Assembly: GCF_004010195.1 (NCBI RefSeq)
Contig: NC_057730.1
Coordinates: 46,357,609-46,421,608, forward strand
Source of the DNA: Chiloscyllium plagiosum
Taxonomy: Eukaryota
DNA length: 64,000 nt
Direction: 5' to 3'
A program made the translations under genes and the position numbers. A model generated the notes under the pieces. It had not been told where the DNA came from. It did no database searches and saw nothing but the letters and a program-made list of their open reading frames with translations. Within the stretch, counting starts at the first letter, position 1. The number at the start of each line of letters is the position of its first letter. Positions 4,728-52,562 of this stretch are shown here, one piece after another.

Positions 4728-5839
4728 ATAATTTTGTAAGATCTCCATCCACTTCTCAGACAAGTGTCAGAACAAGCCTTCTTTGTAATGTCTGTCGTAT
4801 ACAAAAACAGCAAGCTGAAACAAAATCTGCATTTATTCATTGCACTGTATTTTTGAACTGTTCTAGTCACCTTCACCTTGCAGGGGACCCATACAGAAGT
4901 ATTAATGCAGAGTTATTCCATTAATAAATTGGGGTTTGCTATACATATTTCTGATAATTCAAAAGGCTGCTGACTAACTTAAGGGTACATGCAACTAAAC
5001 CTACCATATAATCCCATTGCTGTTACACTGATATCATTCTGCATCAACACTGCTTCACAAATAGCAATGAGTCAAAGGCTCTTTTCACCTGATCTCCAGC
5101 TGTTAGTCAAGACTTAGATGAAAAGCATCATGGGATCTCCAACACCCACCCCAACTGTCTCAGTAGGACCTCAATCCTTCTATACAATCTTACCTATTTT
5201 AAGACTAAGTTTAAAGGTAACTCAGACGGGTAAAGTTGATCACTATGGTTCTTTGTGGAACTAAATAGCAGGACCATTACCCTCAATCTTGGATTGCATT
5301 TAATGAGAAAATCTGGGAATTTGTTTTTTTAAGAAAGCAAGGAATTAAAAACTAACCTTTAATGAGAATTGAAAAAAAACTTCAATTCAACTGAGCACAA
5401 AATGCAAAATTGGTATTATATGAGCAAAATTCATCTTTAGCAATTATTTTTTCCCCATTGTCAAAACAAAAATAATGCAGATTTGAGGTTACAGAAAGAT
5501 AACAGTTCTCAACTATACTTAATGTATTTAACATTTCAAGCATTACAGATACAAAGCAGGCTTCAAAATAAAGTGTGAGGAAAGTATCTCCAAAGCTTCA
5601 ACTTATTTCAGTGTGCAGCTGAGAGCAATTAGACTCTTTGTTAACCTCATGATGCATTGTTAGATCATATGGTCTTAAAAGGCCAATCCAAGTTACAGTC
5701 AAAGATACCCTGACAACAAAATAATACACTGGATGCTAAATAGTTTTGGTCTTTTTGCTGTCAAAGTGGCACAATATTATAAATATTAGCTGAATGTGTT
5801 GTATTCTCTAATTGCATGACGTGTGTGTTTTTCTTTTAG

Positions 5840-7641
5840 AATTTTGCCTTGTATCCGTAATTGTCTGTCAATGGTGTATCCCACTACTGGGGGCAGAACC
5901 ACAGCTACCATTAGGAGGGTCAGCTGATGAAAACATCACTTGCCCTGAAGTATGCACCTGCATTTTTGATGATTACAGTGAAGAACTGAATGTCTATTGC
6001 AGCTCTCGCAACTTTACAAGCATTCCAAACGATCTACCGTTAAATGCTAAAGCCATTTGGTTTGACTCTAATAACTTCACAGTTCTTCAATCCCATGCTC
6101 TCAGGAATATGTCTAATCTGGATTTCTTGAACCTAGAGAATAGCTATATAGTTACGGTCGAGCAGCATGCCTTCGACGGTTTGAAGGTGCTAGTTCACCT
6201 CCATTTGGAAAGGAACAAATTGAAATACCTAGTACCAAATGTATTCCTCCACACTCCATCTCTTGGATCACTCAGTCTGAACAATAACAACTTTGGCAAA
6301 ATTGAAGATGAATTGTTTTCTGGCCTCTCTCATCTCTGGTACCTGAATCTGGGATGGAATAATCTGGCAGTTTTGCCTGCTACAGGCTTTCATGACTTAC
6401 CAAACTTAAAGGAACTTATTTTGGCAGGAAATAGATTAACCTACCTGCAGTCCCAACTGTTTACACGTTTGACAGATCTGAAGGAACTTGATTTATCAGG
6501 AAATTTGTTGAGGGGCATTAAGGGGAATATCTTTGTGAAGCTGCAAAAGCTTCAGAAGCTTTATATGAGTCATAACCAGATCAGTACCATAGTACCAAGA
6601 GCGTTTATGGGGATGAAATCGCTCAGATGGTTAGACTTGTCCCACAATCGCATTACAGTACTACATGAAGAAACATTCTCTGGCCTTCTAAATCTGCATG
6701 TGCTTCGAATGCTCAACAACTCCATCACACAGTTGAAGCCCAAGACGTTCACAGAACTTCAGTTTCTGGAGGAACTCCAGCTTGGGTACAACAAAATCAT
6801 AAGTCTTTCTGAGAATGTGTTTGATGGGTTAGTACAATTGGAAGTCCTCACACTAAACAATAATCAGATTCAGCAGATCAAACCAGGAACATTTGTTGGC
6901 CTTCGTGAGGTGGCTGTACTGAACCTATCCAGCAACTCCTTAAAGAATTTACCAGACCATTCATTTACAGGTCTTATTAATCTACATAGCCTGCATTTAG
7001 AAAATAACGCATTCACCAGAATTCAACCAAACACATTTTCTGGATTGTTCTGCCTTCGAAGACTCTTCCTGCAAAACAATTACATTTCGGTTATTCAGAA
7101 TCAGAGCCTCAGTGACTTAAAACAGCTTTCGGAACTGGATTTCAGATACAACAAACTAACACAGATATCTGTTCAGGCCTTTGTTGGTGTACCAAATCTG
7201 GAGTATCTACTATTAAAATGCAACGAACTTCAATACATTTCTGAAACCACCTTTCAACCTTTACACCTCCTCTCGTGGCTTGATTTATCGGAGAACTTCA
7301 TTGAGTTTTTCTATAATTACACTCTGACACCCTTGACAAAGTTAAAGTATCTGAACCTTAAGAGCAACTCTTTAAAGCACTTCCCCCCACAGCTTTTGGA
7401 GCAGGCAACACAATTGGAGCAACTACTGCTTGGGGGTAACAATTGGCACTGTGACTGTTTGCTAAAGTCACTCAGAGATTACTGTCTAAGGAATCCCCAC
7501 GTAGTTCCCCGTTATTTCGAATCAGCAGTAGAAGATGGTACAATCATGCACACTTACAACAACATCACCTGTGCAAGCCCAAAAACTATTGCGAGCACAG
7601 ATTTGAGGGACATTAGTGAGGACTATTTTCGTAATTGTTAA
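5840..7641 (+). CDS. IGFALS: IGFALS exon 2: IGF-binding protein acid-labile subunit (signal peptide, LRRNT, ~19-20 LRRs, LRRCT); spliced protein 605 aa
   Basis: Acceptor ttcttttag at 5831-5839. LRRNT is CPEVCTCIFDDYSEELNVYCSSRN, followed by 24-aa LRRs and a C-terminus YNNITCASP...DLRDISEDYFRNC typical of ALS. Adjacent to NUBP2 as in other vertebrates. Confidence 0.95.
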
Positions 7642-42980: not shown

Positions 42981-43523
42981 AAAATAGCATTGTTACTGCA
43001 CCATGACCGTTCCCTACTGACAATTTGCTTGGTCTTCTATATGAAGTGAGTCAAGCTGTGATTCTGAAGTTGATGGTCAATTTAAGAACAAAGCTACGTT
43101 ACTGAGCAGCATGCTAAGTCATCTCAAATTGAATGGGCACTAAGAAAGCAAGCAATAGGACCTGAAGTGGGTGTGTCCTTGCACACAGGGACCGGAAAAA
43201 ATTGCAATTAAAGGTGGCAGTGAGCTCAAATTATGAAGTGTATTGAGTTGGAGGTTGGCTGAACATCAGTCTCACCACATCTTGGACAAGGCCAACTTCC
43301 ATGGATAAAGTGTGTGGTGATTGTAGTGCAGTCAGCCAGATGGACCTCATTAGATTGGGTTCCCTGATTGGACAAGGTTAATAATCCCAATCAGTGAACC
43401 CAGCTGACAGATTCACTGGCCACTCGGGTGTTTCTTCTTCCTGGTGGTGGAAATTCGAATAAAGATTCGTGCACCTTGTAGAGAAAAAAAAAAATTTTTT
43501 CAAATAACCAGGAGTGTTCAGAG

Positions 43524-44270
43524 GGTGGGTAGGCCACCCTGATGCCAGTCGACAGAGAGCCAGATAGTGGGTAGGCCATTCTGAGCGCTGTCATCCCGAG
43601 AAGGGGTGATCAGGATGGGCTGTCCTAGAGGTGGTCAAAAGGTAGCCGAGAGCCAGAAGGCGCGTAGGGGCAGGTTGAGATCCGGAAGATTTGTGGGCTA
43701 CCCTGCACGCAGTCATCCCAGAGAAGGGGACGGGCTGTCCTAGAGGTGGCCGGAAGGTGTGCCAGGTTAGCCCACTGGCCGGAAGGATGCATTGGGGTGG
43801 GTGAGCGCCCAATGGTACGCAGGGGCAGACAGAGAGCCAGAAGGTGGGTAGCCGTCCTCCGCACTGTCAGTCTGGGCAGGTTGCCCCAGAGATGGTCGAA
43901 AGAGTGTGTCAGGGCGGACCAAGAACTGGAAGGGGCATGGGGTGGACTGAGAGCTGGAAGGTGGGTAGGGGCGGGCTGCCATAGAGTGGTCGGAAGGTGG
44001 GAGGGACGGATGCTTGCTGGGTCTGTATTGTATGCACTGTTTATGTAACTGGATTAGCTTTTTATGTACAAATGTCATTGTCACTGTCTTGTCATATGTG
44101 AAACTGGGATTTGGGGTTTGTCCTCATTTCCCTGTAAACTGGTTGAACGGTAGGGTTTGTGGCCTAGCTTTGCTGCTCCTCTCTCTTGTAAAATTGCTGT
44201 TCCATACAGCTGTAAATGTTAACTGTTTTTAGTAAAGTGTTTTGTAATTGCTTAATAAAATTAAAAAAAA
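43524..44270 (+). mobile_element. GC-rich, internally repetitive poly(A)-tailed retroposon 3' end
   Basis: Imperfect repeats (agagccaga..., gtcatccc.agaagggg...gggctgtcctagaggtgg), AATAAA at 44254-44259 and an A-tail, bounded by taaccaggagt repeats. Confidence 0.55.
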
Positions 44271-44281
44271 TAACCAGGAGT

Positions 44282-44662
44282 ATTTTACGTTAGAGCCCAG
44301 GTGTCTCTGGAAAAGGAACACGTGGTGACCACCAACACCCTTGAGCTATTCAGGGAGAGGTGGGCGCCGCAGGGAGTGGAGTGCATTATTTCCCCCTCCA
44401 ACTCTTATTTTGATTTGATCCCTGCCCTCCCCTTCACTGTTTGATCACACAACATTGTCCTTTGATGTGAAGGGCATTGCTTGTCACTGGCCACTCGGGT
44501 GTTTCCTTTCTTCCTGGTGTTGGAAATTTGAATAAAGATTTGTGCACCTTGTATCTTTCACTGTGTCTCACACCTGTGCGCGCGCGCACACGTGGGTGCT
44601 GGGGAAAAAATACGCGCTACCGCAGTTTGGCAGTAGTGTGGGGGTAAAAAGGGGAAAAAAAA
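44282..44662 (+). mobile_element. Tx1-like (L1 clade) non-LTR retrotransposon 3' end
   Basis: YVRAQVSLEKEHVVTTNTLELFRERWAPQGVECII resembles the Tx1 ORF2 C-terminus; 3' UTR with AATAAA and an A-rich tail; 44484-44553 is duplicated at 43413-43480. Confidence 0.7.
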
Positions 44663-44711
44663 TAAACAAGAGTGTCAGAGGTTCTGTTTTTTAAAAAAAA
44701 AATAACCGGGA

Positions 44712-45022
44712 GTGTTGTAGCTCAGTGGTTAGCATTGCTGCCTCTCAGTACCAGGGGCCAGTGTTCAATCCAAATCTCTGGCGATTGTGGAGTTTGCACA
44801 TCCTCCCTGTGTCTGTGGGTTTCCTTTGCATGCTCTGGTTTCCTCCCACAATCCAAGAATGTGCAGGTCAGGTGATTTGGTTCTGGAATATGTAGGTTAG
44901 GTGCATTAGGGATAGACGTAGAGGAAAAAAGGTAGGAGAATGGGTCTGCGTGGGTTAGTCTATGGAGGATTGGTGCTGACTGTTAGCACCAAATGGCCTG
45001 TTTCCACACTGGGATTCTGATT
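44712..45022 (+). mobile_element. HE1/V-SINE
   Basis: gtagctcagtggttagcattgctgcctc head and V-domain. Confidence 0.85.
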
Positions 45023-45156
45023 TCTTTCTTTTGAAAAAAAAGGAAGTGTCAGAGATTCTGTTTTCTAAGAACTGCCTGAGAAAGCTGGCTCAGTGTCCAA
45101 GACCTGTGTAAAGAAAGGGTGGCTTAGTGACAGGATTCGTGCCTCTGTTTATTTTA

Positions 45157-48100
45157 GTGGAAACGAGAAATGCATGCTGTTGGGGGGGAAAAGTTCACTC
45201 CCCAGTCTGAGCTGGGTGTAAACATTTCTGGTATCATGCCATTATTTGGGAAGCTTGACTTGTTTGATCCTGCCTTCGAAGACTGGGCCCAGAATGTGGA
45301 AAGAATATGCTTTTTTTTATGTGGGCAAATGACATTTGAGGCAGAGTAATAAATAATACTCTTGGCAGCGGCTGGTGAACCTGCAGCTTTTTCACTTATT
45401 AGGTTAACTTTTCTTGAGGCACCAGATGCTGAAATCTTTCAAGAGTTGACAGATTTAGTTATGAAATGTTTGACCCCAAGCCACATCTAATTCTGAGATG
45501 CTATTGGTTTTACTTGGCGATTTGAGAACCAGGGGAATCCGCATCAGGATTTCTGACTAGGTTAAAATGACTGGCAGAGGCACTATGTTGTCTTAACCCT
45601 TAATAAGATACTGACCCCCATTTGGTATGTGGGATAATGCAAAATCACCTAGCTGTAGTCCAACTGGACTTCAAACAGGCACTACAACTGGCTTTATCAT
45701 TGGCAAATATGGTAACTGGTTGGCTGAGTTGCAGGATATTCTGATACTGTCACCTGTCTGAGTTTGGGGGAACACGATTTGGGTGAAGGCAATTGCATAG
45801 CCTCATTTGGGATACATCCTGAAGAGAGGGATTCTGGGTCAACCCACAGCAAAACTCCAAAACAAAGCCAAGCCTAACCAAACAGTTAACTTTCTTCAGG
45901 ATCCGGCTTGGCAAGCGATTGTAATTGCTGCTGGTATGTGGACTTGAGAGCAAAAGAGTCCTACTAGATGTAAATGGAGTAAGAACTCCTAGGCTACTAT
46001 TCAGGAGAGTGCACATCCTAGAAAGTCCACCTACAGCTGGTTCAGAACAATTTAAATTGGTTCTGATTTGTGTTAAACAATCAAAATTCCGATTAAATGG
46101 TCACCCAGTTCTAATGGAGGTTGATACTGGCACAGCTGTATCAGTAATTGCAGAACCAGTCTTTAATTCGCTCTGGGCTCCAAACCTCAAGGTTAACTTT
46201 AGTTCTGGTCTCATGAGATACAGCTGGTTCTGTTACCTACTGATGAAAATGCTGTGGCCAAAGCCTGATGGGGTGAATTTGGTTGAGAAATTCACCTTGA
46301 TTGGCGCAACACTTCTCGATCAAAAAAATGGCTGCTGAGTGAAGTCATAATTACCTGGAAGACTTTCAGGAATATCTTGGGAATATGAAGTGTCAAGGCT
46401 ATCTTGCATGTTGCCTAGGAAGCAGTGCCATGATTCTGCAAGGCGTACCCAGTGCCATTTACCTTGCATGCAAAAGTAGAGGCCAAAATCAGAAGGCTGG
46501 AAAGTAAAGGAATCATCAAACTAGTCCAGTTTGCAGAATGGATAGCACTGGTCATGCCAATTTGTGAAACCTTAAATGATAAATTGCTTCTCTCAGTTGG
46601 ATAAACACTTGATCCTTTGCATAGATGATTTATTCACAAAGCTGGCAGGATGGTTGTCCTTCAAGAAGTGTGGCTCATGTCCAGCTTACCTGCAATTGTG
46701 GTTAGCTGAGTCCCAGATGTATACTACAATTAATAACCATAAGAGTTTGTACCAGCGTCAGACTGCTATTTGTGGTATCATTGTCTGCTGAAAAAGTGGC
46801 AGTGTCTAATGGAGAAAATTTTATAAGGTCTTTCCCCGAATCACAATTTATCTAGATGACCTGCTAATAACAGGAAAAACCAATAAGCAGCATGTAAAGA
46901 ACTTGGGCCCTAGATGTCTCCCCAAGGTAGGCATATGACTTTAAAAGGGAAAGTGTGTTCCAGGCATCCAAAGTGACTGACTTGGACTACAGAGTCAACA
47001 AGACTTAGGTAACCCTCATGATCTTCCAATAGGTGCAATCAAAGGTGTGTGTGTATGTGTGTCTTTTAATGGGAAGTTCATACATAATCTGGCCTCCATC
47101 CTGGCACCCTTATATCTGTGGAAAAAGTTTCAGCCTTGGAAAGGTCTGAGCCATGATGTAGTCTTTAAGAAATTGAAGAAACTATCTTCTAAGATGTTGG
47201 CATACTCTGACTTCAAGCGAGATCTGATGTTGACATATAATGCCTCCCTTTACAGAATTGGAATAGTATAGTCTCCAAGATCTCCCAAAAGAGAGGAATG
47301 GCTGATACCATGTGCCTTCTGGATTCTGGCTAATGCAGAGCACAAGTATGCCCAGATGAGGATGGAAAGTTTGGTCATTTTGAGGCAGTTCCACTAATAC
47401 TTTCACAAATTTGCATCTGTAATAGTAACAAGCCATGGCCCCTGCTAGTACTAATCCAGAGGTCAAGACCTTGCTGCCCATAGTTTCAGGTCAAGGTCAG
47501 CAGGGACACTCTCTAAATGTTTATCATTACAAGTTTGAACAACGTCTGGGATGCCTCGAGCTGCCTTCTGATGGTGCCACCACTGGAAGAGTCCATTCTG
47601 ATTTTAAACCTTCCGGACACCCTTCTGGTTTCTGACCATATCCGACTGGACCCAAAAGGTTCCAGTCTTGGTAAAAGTAAAACAGCTGGTGGTGATGGAG
47701 GAAACTAAAGGGCCAAAGCACCTGGAATGGAAACCCCTCTGGACCCAGAGAGACCAGATCGTAATAGAGGGCAGCATTCCATTATGGGGAGCAAGTGTGG
47801 TTGTCCCAAGTTTTTTTTTAAAAATACTGCCACATATTGGCTGAGTTCCTCCAGGGTCATCAAGGACTATCCAAAATGAAAATGATGACCAGAATTGGGT
47901 GCAGACATAACTGGTGGAGTAGTGCCAAGAATACCAACAATCGAAAAGAACTTACCATCAGCTTCCCCCATATTTATGGGAATGATCAGTACACCCTGGA
48001 CTCTGTTCACATGTGATCCTTTTTATGGGTGCAACTTTCTTGTCATTGGGCATGCCCTATCAAAATGGTTAGAATTTTCATTTGTCAAACACTGGGTTGA

Positions 48101-48500
48101 TAATAAAGCTGCCAGCATCATATGCAATATGTGGGCTCCCAGATGTATTGGTCCCGGATGACAGGCTATTGTTTCACCAGCAGGGAATTGGAGTATTTCC
48201 TAAAGTCAAATTGTACTCTTTATATAAGGACAACTCCATACCATCTGTCAGCCAATCGTCTGGCAAAAAGAGCTGTCCAAACTTTGAAGGCAGGTTGGGG
48301 GGAGCGTGGCGCGATGAACTGGCATTTGTTGAAAATAAGACTTTTTAAGAGAGACCACTTCAGTGGACAAGGTTTGTTGTAGGAACCATAGTAAAGGCCC
48401 CGCATGGTTAAGAGGCATGGCTGATGCAATGTCAGGTCCTGTGCCATACAAACCTCATTTAAGTGAGGCAGTTCTGAACAAGCACTTGGACTTGTCGTGA
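45157..48500 (+). mobile_element. decayed Gypsy (Mag-like) LTR retrotransposon internal region; no 3' LTR seen
   Basis: gag MPLFGKLDLFDPAFEDWAQNVER (ATG 45236), protease LNGHPVLMEVDTGTAVSVI (DTG 46123), RT IYLDDLLITG (46846), integrase FTSRELEYFLKSN...TPYHLSANRLAKRAVQTLK. PR-RT-RH-IN order, with many stops and frameshifts. Confidence 0.9.
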
Positions 48501-48980
48501 CAATTCTTGTCACTGGTGCTGAAGCATTGGGAAGAATCTATTTTTTGTTTTTGCTGTTTGAAAGTCCTTCATTGACTTCCACGTATAGTTTTTTTATTTT
48601 TTGTTTCCTATAATAAACTGCTTGTTTCAAAATACTTGGCAGCCTCGTGAATATCTTCAGTGAGTAACTGCCATGGTAATGAACTAAAGAAACTTGATTG
48701 ATCAAGCCAGATTTTATTCTGGAATTTGACCTGTTCAGAACACACCTCTGCTATTTTTACAACAGTGGGTTTTGTGGCACCTGTTTTAAACATGAACGAT
48801 ATTTTGCAAATTAACAGTTTTACCTTTTAATTACCTCAAGCTCTGTAGATGAAGTATGCTGTCAAGTATCAACGGGGGACAGGTTTTTAAGAACTGGCTA
48901 ATGTTCTTAAGATTTTTAATTCTGTCCCCCTTAGTGGCTCATTATTGTACAAATATTCCTCTGCAGGTTTTAAGGGCACC

Positions 48981-49112
48981 ATGTCTCGCCGTACCAGAAA
49001 TAATCGTGCCTGGCGGTATGTGTACAGTGGTATTCGAGATGCTGATGCTGTGGCTGTAGTAATGCCTGATGGGTCAGTTGGTCCTGGTCCTGGCTATGAC
49101 TCAGATGGTCAG
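48981..49112 (+). CDS. SPSB3: SPSB3 first canonical coding exon (exon starts at 48967); spliced CDS 1071 nt = 356 aa
   Basis: cag|gttttaagggcaccATG; MSRRTRNNRAWRYVYSGIRDADAVAV...YDSDGQ|gtaggt. Confidence 0.9.
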
Positions 49113-51476: not shown

Positions 51477-51651
51477 CACAGTGACTCTGATTCTGAGCCA
51501 GAATTCCATTTGCCACCGTCAATCCCAACAGCATTACCTGTGACGGGAGAGTCGTACTGTGACTGTGCGAGTCAAAGTGATACCCGATATTGTGGTGGTA
51601 TGCGTAGCTTCCATCGCATGAAGGATTGTCACTGTGGAGAGGAGGATGAAT
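51477..51651 (+). CDS. SPSB3: SPSB3 exon 3
   Basis: aag|[58 protein letters not shown]+T|gtaag. Confidence 0.92.
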
Positions 51652-52562
51652 GTAAGGATGAATAAAAATTACACTCTTGTTTGAGGGATTTGATAGCAGT
51701 GTAATGCAACAACAGTTTAAGTGGAGCAGGGGGAGGGGGAGCAGGGGGGGGGAATATAAAAGGATCATATAATTGTTTAATCCTGGTGCAATGCTTTATC
51801 ACTGGCTCTTCTCAGAATTCCATATGGCATACATCAAGGTTTTAAAATAGTTCACTGGCAAATTATTAAATTTGCAATCCCCATTTCTGACAGTGTCTCA
51901 GTATTAAATACAAATTTGAAGTGCAGCAGTCAACTTGATGAAAATTAGGTTGCAATAGACTGGCATAGCTGTTCTCAGTAAGGTTTGCACTTTGTTTAAA
52001 GAATTTGTGGTGCTATTGTGAACAGTACTTGAATTTTGACTTTTAATGCTAGATCTGATCAAATGGACTGAATGGAGAATCATGGGTGATTTGGTCTCAA
52101 GATGTAATTTAATCCCTCTGTTCTAGTGACCATTTTAGAGCTGAAATCCAAACCATACAAGACTAGAGCCAACAGGTTGCTGCCAGCCATCTGACAGATC
52201 ATGAATGCTATTGGTGGGCCCATGATGCCACCATTTTGTAATAGTCTTTAACTGCATATTATATATACTCTGGCTTTGCACGCTGAAGCTGAGTAACCTC
52301 CACTTGAAGGACTAGTATTTGAGGTGCAGACATTGCAGGTTTTCCAAATTGATTGACAGGTGATATCAGAATATTCAAATAATTGTTCATTTAAGAATAA
52401 AGTATTTATCTCCAGTGTGCTAAACTACTTGAAACAAATGTGACAAGTCCAAATTTGTTTGGACAGTGTATTGGTTTATCTCCACCAACAAGCATTTAAA
52501 ATGTGTGTACAATGTGACGAGTGAGAATTTGAAAAAAACTAATTTTTAAAAAATCTCTGCAG

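Follow-up and report, generated by a model that had tools for sequence, protein, structure and literature searches.

The window analysed here, a 64,000-nucleotide stretch of the genome of the shark Chiloscyllium plagiosum (contig NC_057730.1, positions 46,357,609 to 46,421,608 of the forward strand), contains a Gypsy-type long terminal repeat (LTR) whose two halves are separated by a stack of other retroposons. Two pieces of the stack derive from a Tx1-clade long interspersed element (LINE) related to Xenopus Tx1L. A third belongs to a non-coding element that we refer to as the passenger, and the fourth is a short interspersed element (SINE) of the V-SINE type. Copies of a short motif, TAA[A/C]C[A/G][A/G]GAGTGT, stand between the pieces. 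Our reading, to which we give a probability of about 0.8, is that a single LTR was interrupted four times in succession at its TATA-like box, and that the insertions were likely the work of the endonuclease and reverse transcriptase (RT) of the Tx1L-related LINE family, which prefers this site. The coordinates of all pieces are given in Table 1. Loci fetched from elsewhere in the genome are cited by L numbers.

Table 1. Features of the stack and of the LTR element that carries it (TSD, target-site duplication; UTR, untranslated region; PBS, primer-binding site)
Feature	Position	Strand	Remarks
Gypsy-type LTR, U3 half	43313..43412	+	TG start; inverted CCAAT at 43367, CCAAT at 43387; stops at 43412, the first base of the TATA-like box, with no TSD copy at the junction
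Tx1 3'-UTR fragment, 5'-truncated	43413..43504	+	A/T-rich tail; ends ~20 nt past an internal AATAAA (43458)
Motif copy 1	43505..43518	+	TSD; host variant TAACC
Passenger, 3' 45%	43519..44270	+	non-coding, A-tailed; AATAAA at 44254
Motif copy 2	44271..44282	+	TSD; TAACC
Tx1L-related LINE, 5'-truncated	44283..44662	+	last ~50 ORF2 codons, 3' UTR, A-tail
Motif copy 3, LTR R sequence and second A-tail	44663..44702	+	~15 bp of R sequence; probable 3' transduction from a donor locus, judged from variants
Motif copy 4	44703..44716	+	TSD; TAACC
HE1-type V-SINE	44717..45041	+	head short by ~10 nt; T-rich stretch and A8 at end
LTR R-U5 half with degraded motif copy 5	45042..45156	+	
PBS-like sequence	45158..45167	+	TGG..GAG from 45158; presumed PBS
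Decayed gag-pol region	45168..48500	+	many stops and frameshifts

A pattern search of the window returned the four complete motif copies of the stack, each preceded by an A-run, and one extra match at 51671 on the other strand; shuffled versions of the window contained a mean of 0.63 matches per shuffle (maximum 3). The fifth, degraded copy follows A8, where a preliminary description of the window had placed a partial copy near 45041. That description also gave the four complete copies and the order of the pieces correctly, and its boundaries were refined at the starts of the passenger and of the SINE match. Copies 1, 2 and 4 all read TAACC, and copy 3 reads TAAAC, the form of the family. The proposal that the flanks are one split LTR was borne out: 43313-43411 and 45047-45136 align to the two halves of empty copies of an LTR of ~245 bp. 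No partner LTR of the same family was present within the window.

The genome holds 147 exact matches to a 35-nt empty-site pattern, and all 30 of those inspected continue into R. The U3 half retrieved 29 other LTR copies; most of them pass through a TATAAA-type box into the motif, and ~5 hold an insert at exactly that spot (by eye). The preliminary description had allowed that the motif might belong to the termini of the inserted elements; its occurrence in empty LTR copies makes it part of the LTR itself. Along its sequence, the LTR has two CCAAT boxes, TATA, an initiator-like TCACTCT ~30 nt on, AATAAA and a CA end. This layout would be that of a promoter, and the earlier suggestion of a cut in a promoter region at a probable TATA agrees with the position of the motif, which is the TATA-like box. 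A second LTR subtype has the box in common and differs in the sequence behind it (17/30 sites). To take the string 'AAACAGGAGATT..' as a mark of a second LTR family alone proved half wrong: its 30 sites were 17 empty second-subtype LTRs, 12 passenger heads and 1 interrupted site.

The motif was frequent at the junctions of copies elsewhere. It stood behind the 3' end in 20/28 Tx1 copies (opposite strand 0), behind 32 of the 72 scorable 3' ends in a fresh Tx1 batch of 80 (opposite strand 2) and behind 18/27 passenger 3' ends (opposite strand 0), compared with 0/29 control SINE copies (opposite strand 2). From the loci behind the counts of 20/28, 18/27 and 0/29, two that overlapped and one lacking a 3' flank had been set aside beforehand. 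The 3' flanks, which the preliminary description had wanted checked, are thus often occupied by the motif. At the 5' junctions of Tx1 copies the motif was seen in 17/27, 11/25 and 38/73 cases (66/125; opposite strand 1, 1 and 3, in sum 5), and at those of the passenger in 12/23 (opposite strand 2). Truncation points varied from copy to copy, with the motif still at the junction. Searched from the target side, 'A-tail + site' had 37 exact matches, 30 of which were inspected: upstream lay Tx1 in 24, very short Tx1-like bits in 3, and the passenger, a SINE and something else in 1 each. A contiguity filter on BLAST matches missed short A-rich gaps, and the conclusions rest on the motif counts. The motif was present on 44-71% of junctions, above the level at which, in the accessible text of Kojima (2015), a Tx1 element is called target-specific, one target type in >20% of flanks (PMC4494074).

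These junctions bear on the opposite view, in which there is no targeting: the motif would be a 3'-terminal part of the elements, acquired in a single transduction and copied from then on, and the link to the LTR would be hitch-hiking. Motif copies transduced at the 3' end do exist, probably one of them in the window. However, the counts at 5' junctions of independently truncated copies largely refute this view. A contiguous LTR U3 half also lay upstream in 9/28 and 8/27 short loci, TSDs shared variants private to the acceptor, and unrelated SINE cargo was found at the same base. We regard hitch-hiking as highly improbable and keep to targeted insertion.

The commonest 3' junction was (A)n followed by TAAAC, GAAC or directly by CAGG, which places the nick within the TATA box. 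TSDs were mainly 10-20 bp; some junctions had none (e.g. 43412) and some had long ones (35 bp in L318, ~95 bp in L317, ~170 bp in L139). The two members of a TSD pair had private variants in common in L312, L317, L318 and L128. The target duplications of ~95-170 bp, in L139 (~1290-1680), L317 and L122 (1555-1660 and 8720-8815), extended from the TATA nick to a microhomology with the insert, and that of L139 surrounds an insert of just ~16 nt plus poly(A). In L137 / L363 (minus strand, up to 9276), the right half of the LTR is joined to a stretch that bears an A-tail and ends in an inverted-repeat-bounded, DNA-transposon-like piece, and no left half was found in the 9.3 kb upstream; the stretch may stem from a cellular RNA that entered the site, or the LTR half may be an orphan.

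The LINE is a Tx1 element of ~7 kb with two open reading frames, ORF1 (CCHC) and ORF2 (APE endonuclease, RT, zf-RVT). Every copy is broken (L122 and 20 further long loci), and the 8 + 20 long loci that were fetched yielded no intact ORF2; in one copy, what looked like an open frame of 1,213 aa proved to be a stretch of N. Poly(A) tails, 5' truncation and TSDs are all present. Four natural copies (L122, L290, L294, L295) matched PF03372 (APE, E 2e-12), PF00078 (RT, E 5e-33), zf-RVT (E 4e-5) and, weakly, zf-CCHC (E 0.012). The RT is 67% identical to Xenopus Tx1L ORF2 (P14381) and the endonuclease (EN) region 45% over 400 aa; the DNA-contacting hairpin loop of the EN is three residues shorter than in Tx1L. 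An RT tree, midpoint-rooted, was built from 32 rows (4 own copies and 28 chosen matches, with no L1 outgroup and no named Keno, Kibi or Tx1-Mar). The family grouped with Tx1L and with turtle, sturgeon and stingray proteins in a 12-row clade (100/100), and teleost and alligator sequences fell outside the Tx1L branch, the single alligator Tx1 match reaching 52%. A stingray protein as nearest named RT relative would, like the HE1-like SINE, suit a cartilaginous fish. With the APE domain, this tree, which the preliminary description had asked for, upholds the assignment to the Tx1 clade. In the window, 43413-43477 matches the 3' end of the near-full copy L304 at 91%, 44285-44644 that of a near-full copy at 84%, and the frame 44283-44441 translates as the Tx1 ORF2 C-terminus. 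A more diverged Tx1-like ORF2 end lies at the identical LTR site in L004 (from ~1600), hinting at a second or older family that shares the target.

Passenger copies are mostly 1.7-1.9 kb long, and a tail was called in 19/20 of those fetched; the window piece aligns to positions 979-1832 of a 1850-bp copy. We found no long open reading frame (the longest sense stop-free frame is 92 aa, in L188), no similarity between the passenger body and the Tx1 body, and no Rfam match, snRNA included, in the window region or in one passenger copy. The head aligns to R of the second LTR subtype (E 5e-7). That the passenger might be the 3' UTR of some other coding LINE was rejected in view of the defined head, the size of full-length copies and the lack of a long frame. 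Tx1 and passenger copies both show ~92% pairwise identity. Since the passenger resembles Tx1 in site, orientation and age, it is likely to be carried by Tx1. One subgroup (L065, L072, L076, L080, L084, L088, L090) ends in AATAAAATATTA with no poly(A) and is joined directly to the target; its copy L080 lies at an off-target site. In L307, L309 and L319, passenger heads carry an added second stretch of first-subtype LTR R, a repeated head addition as in the SINEU elements discussed below.

The SINE of the window, of which 44717-45020 aligns to a tRNA-headed SINE, is a putative HE1 element. Its 29 control relatives have a tRNA-like head and a GATTCTA/AATCTA short-repeat tail without A-tail, and 0/29 lie at the site. 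The window copy is A-tailed, has the motif on both flanks and is 75% identical to the relatives. Five more SINE copies sit at the exact Tx1 site (L155, L358, L359, L360, L361), three of them (L155, L358, L359) with clean TSDs of 13-16 bp; in L155 the SINE is followed by flank as far as a T-run, then by poly(A) and the TSD. Four of 6 matches to a SINE-at-site pattern were true, and L155 was found besides. A control pattern with another LTR 11-mer, which may be less conserved, gave 3 matches, all in one satellite and 0 in an LTR. At least in this respect the preliminary description was right: more than one type of retroposon, namely Tx1, passenger and SINE, has entered the site. Its V-SINE does sit there with motif flanks, as an occasional passenger from a family that is not itself site-specific.

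The SINE in the window might instead have arrived by its ordinary CR1/HER1-type route and landed at the site by chance. The absence of the 29 nearest copies from the site and the age of the window copy would suit such a landing, the upstream motif may overlap the SINE's own GGG head, and L239 resembles a case of this kind. Chance is nevertheless improbable, given an A-tail and motif flanks unlike those of any control and five other copies at the same base, three of them with TSDs. The SINEs at the site are likely to reflect rare trans-mobilisation by the Tx1 enzyme, that of a LINE that is not their partner. Separately, SINE copies in L444-L446 have multiplied within a tandemly repeated satellite on a single small contig.

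Motif copy 3 extends for 26 bp into LTR sequence, which is absent behind the next motif, and has an A-tail of its own. Thirty such units of motif, R sequence and A-tail were found across all loci, including the one in the window, and 24 of them measured 22-35 nt. Eleven units preceded a classifiable LTR, nine of these differing in subtype from the acceptor, and 19 preceded non-LTR or unclassifiable sequence. In L128 and L009, both true ends carried the private variant of the host, with a foreign variant between them. Where a tail meets TAAA, AATAAA is formed (44661 in the window), from which cleavage at such distances would follow. Copy 3 is therefore probably a donor target carried along as a 3' transduction, and the simplest history is one of four insertions, one of which brought the target of its donor. 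The preliminary description had read all motif copies as successive TSDs. That holds for copies 1, 2 and 4, and probably not for copy 3; at the 43412/43413 junction there is no motif copy.

We propose that insertion begins when the APE endonuclease introduces a nick into the bottom strand of the TATA box, where the poly(A) tail would serve for priming. The insert comes to lie in the sense of the LTR, and the duplication, occasionally far longer than 20 bp and sometimes missing, remakes the site, so that stacks grow. The choice of cargo is loose at the level of DNA, extending to Tx1 RNA with two alternative 3' ends, the passenger and, rarely, the HE1 SINE, all presumably served by the same enzyme. 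Subtype mismatches suggest that the AATAAA formed by A-tail and TAAA would cause read-through RNA to be cut 22-35 nt into the LTR, which would account for the 44663 copy. Full-length copies may then be transcribed from the CCAAT-CCAAT-TATA promoter of the LTR, which the upstream TSD normally keeps whole ahead of the insert; such transcription would explain why the heads of LINE and passenger derive from R. Among the copies listed, 16/27 further full-length Tx1 5' ends showed an LTR R-like stretch before the 5' UTR, the R-like head was frequently preceded by a piece of Tx1's own 3' UTR, and in L263 and L266 the LTR R runs on into the Tx1 5' UTR (all by eye). A single-cell poly(A) run compared with a full passenger copy yielded 505 reads, mostly originating from other copies, with no start or end peak; a second run yielded 0.

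Several points weigh against this scheme. Roughly one in two ORF2-end copies lacks the motif at a junction, clear off-target copies have TSDs of their own (L039, L055, L079, L080, L089, L380, L407, L415; 14-18 bp in clean insertions), and the loci are best-scoring matches and not a census. Decay lowers the counts, but off-target copies with their own TSDs do exist, and the data therefore indicate a strong preference and not a strict specificity. The site-specific endonuclease of the preliminary description is thus retained as a Tx1 APE LINE that prefers the TATA site. For copy 3, 2/11 classifiable units have the same subtype as the acceptor, 5/30 units were retrieved with a pattern restricted to the first subtype, and tandem duplication accounts for two pairs (L036, L078). 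A long TSD round a poly(A)-only insert is a possible alternative for this copy, given the duplications in L317 and L139. For transcription, the Tx1 head matches LTR R weakly in BLAST (E 0.04). Even where the acceptor is of the other subtype (L310, L312, L325), full-length passengers keep the bases from +13 past TATA, and a start ~30 nt past TATA would not transcribe these bases; the RNA must then start further upstream, for example in a stack. On balance, we lean slightly towards promoter capture by Tx1 and passenger.

Site choice might also depend partly on promoter layout beyond the 13-bp sequence, with a CCAAT box, perhaps bound by NF-Y, ~26 bp upstream of an AT-rich nick. CCAAT/ATTGG was scored in off-motif, non-LTR, non-stack copies with a TSD. 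It started 24-27 nt before the TSD in 4/13 and then in 2/13 copies, against a background of 62/1923 windows (3.2%; pooled P ~1.5e-4). From the first batch, partly viewed before the test, 3/16 rows had been dropped (two stacks, one dubious TSD); the second was fixed beforehand and lost 6/19 rows (three A-stacks, three decayed LTR copies that carry the box). LTR copies with a badly decayed motif were still targeted (L394, L417, L440), and Tx1 5' junctions in L403 (~1610-1655) and L412 (~1725-1765) lay just past the TATA of two CCAAT-TATA sequences that are related to each other and do not belong to this LTR family. However, the second batch alone gave P = 0.06, 20/26 off-target sites had no box, and stacked insertions enter behind A-tails, where no CCAAT is found at such a distance. 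The excess of CCAAT boxes is modest and suggestive, the box is not required for insertion, and a part for promoter layout seems rather unlikely. It is more doubtful still that the LINE reads a Pol II promoter as such (CCAAT with TATA ~26 bp on, possibly with bound NF-Y), landing at a transcription start where it needs no promoter of its own, rebuilding site and poly(A) signal with each insertion, and admitting any polyadenylated RNA, even the SINE of another LINE.

The preliminary description had further supposed that the system, as a hyperparasite, may inactivate its host; active Gypsy elements would then be silenced through cuts in their promoter. Insertion does cut off U3 from the R-U5 half and the internal genes, the LTR hit here is followed by a PBS and gag-pol, and the ~5/29 occupied LTR copies would accord with such an effect. 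The inserts are younger than the LTRs (92-93% versus ~86% pairwise identity), most inspected empty copies have no PBS and look like solo LTRs, the host in the window is heavily decayed, and most sites are still empty. With inserts of this age and mainly solo targets, inactivation of the host is unsupported, and we consider silencing of active elements quite improbable; the data accord better with promoter use and a safe place to land.

The gag-pol region downstream of the stack gave Pfam matches below threshold (protease, E 0.01; RT_RNaseH_2, E 0.067). We take its order of protease, RT with YLDD, RNase H and integrase-like sequence to be of Gypsy type; the other domain labels come from characteristic motifs. 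Where the decayed pol ends, a short AATAAA stretch at 48540-48775 (approx.) resembles the LTR of another family. Two exon-like, CpG-richer stretches follow on the + strand at 48960-49112, which ends at a GT donor, and at ~51490-51660; the LTR element may thus sit in the intron of a host gene. The longest stop-free frame of the window (609 codons, + strand) lies at 5812-7641.

Comparable systems are on record, and were compared by description only. According to the accessible text of Kojima (2015), the crocodilian elements Tx1-8_Crp and Tx1-4_AMi prefer LTR retrotransposons; that text gives no position within the LTR, whereas landing here is at the TATA box, and it places both with Keno/Tx1-Mar, whereas the present family groups with Tx1L (PMC4494074). 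The same text describes Tx1-Mar and SINEU-1/2/3 in Mariner-N4_AMi, where autonomous and non-autonomous elements share a transposon target with a preference of 13% to 90%, tandem insertions sandwich a TSD, and 5' extensions come from the target, with transcription from the flank proposed (PMC4494074). As far as that text goes, the likeness to our locus is close: an autonomous Tx1 with passengers at one transposon target, tandem copies around a TSD and target-derived heads. The target of Tx1-Mar, however, is a DNA transposon with two hot spots and the heads are from U1/U2 snRNA, in place of an LTR TATA box entered in sense and R-derived heads. The passenger functions like SINEU in riding on Tx1, yet it is not a SINE: it has no small-RNA-derived head and is ~1.8 kb long. 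The transposon-on-transposon system of the preliminary description is thus present here, and its kind is already in print (PMC4494074).

The closest named protein, Tx1L of Xenopus laevis, targets the DNA transposon Tx1D (PMC1950540, PMC6719617), and Tx1L-EN nicks its target in vitro (PMC1950540), as far as the accessible text of these sources goes. Both systems are transposon-in-transposon and use an APE endonuclease, and ours differs in target, in looser targeting and in the shorter hairpin loop. For R2Ol, a target sequence on the RNA 3' end is described, within the text available, as raising integration efficiency (PMC6530143). Our units would likewise stem from RNA with target sequence at its 3' end; R2 uses a restriction-like endonuclease and rDNA, whereas in our units another poly(A) stretch comes after the motif. 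HE1 is described, in the part of the source at hand, as a V-SINE of sharks and rays with HER1 as its LINE (PMC3747384), and the tRNA head and short-repeat tail of the 29 controls agree with that account. The six copies at the Tx1 site, that of the window and five others, differ in that most have an A-rich linker or a TSD.

In the literature searched, with Repbase Reports and most subscription journals outside coverage, no account of a shark Tx1 element at the TATA box of an LTR was found. Nesting of Tx1 elements in transposons is already known from frogs and crocodilians; what seems new here is the landing base at the LTR TATA box. Repeated motifs in such stacks mix TSDs and 3' transductions, and should be read with that caution. 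The Tx1 enzyme likely acts on foreign RNAs, in an L1-like manner. The target of nesting Tx1 elements is usually given just as a family name, whereas here it is an exact base in a compact CCAAT-CCAAT-TATA promoter. With many promoter copies and hundreds of natural on- and off-target insertions, two questions become directly testable: does a target-specific LINE live off the promoter of its target, and does an APE-type LINE use host factors or promoter layout besides sequence?

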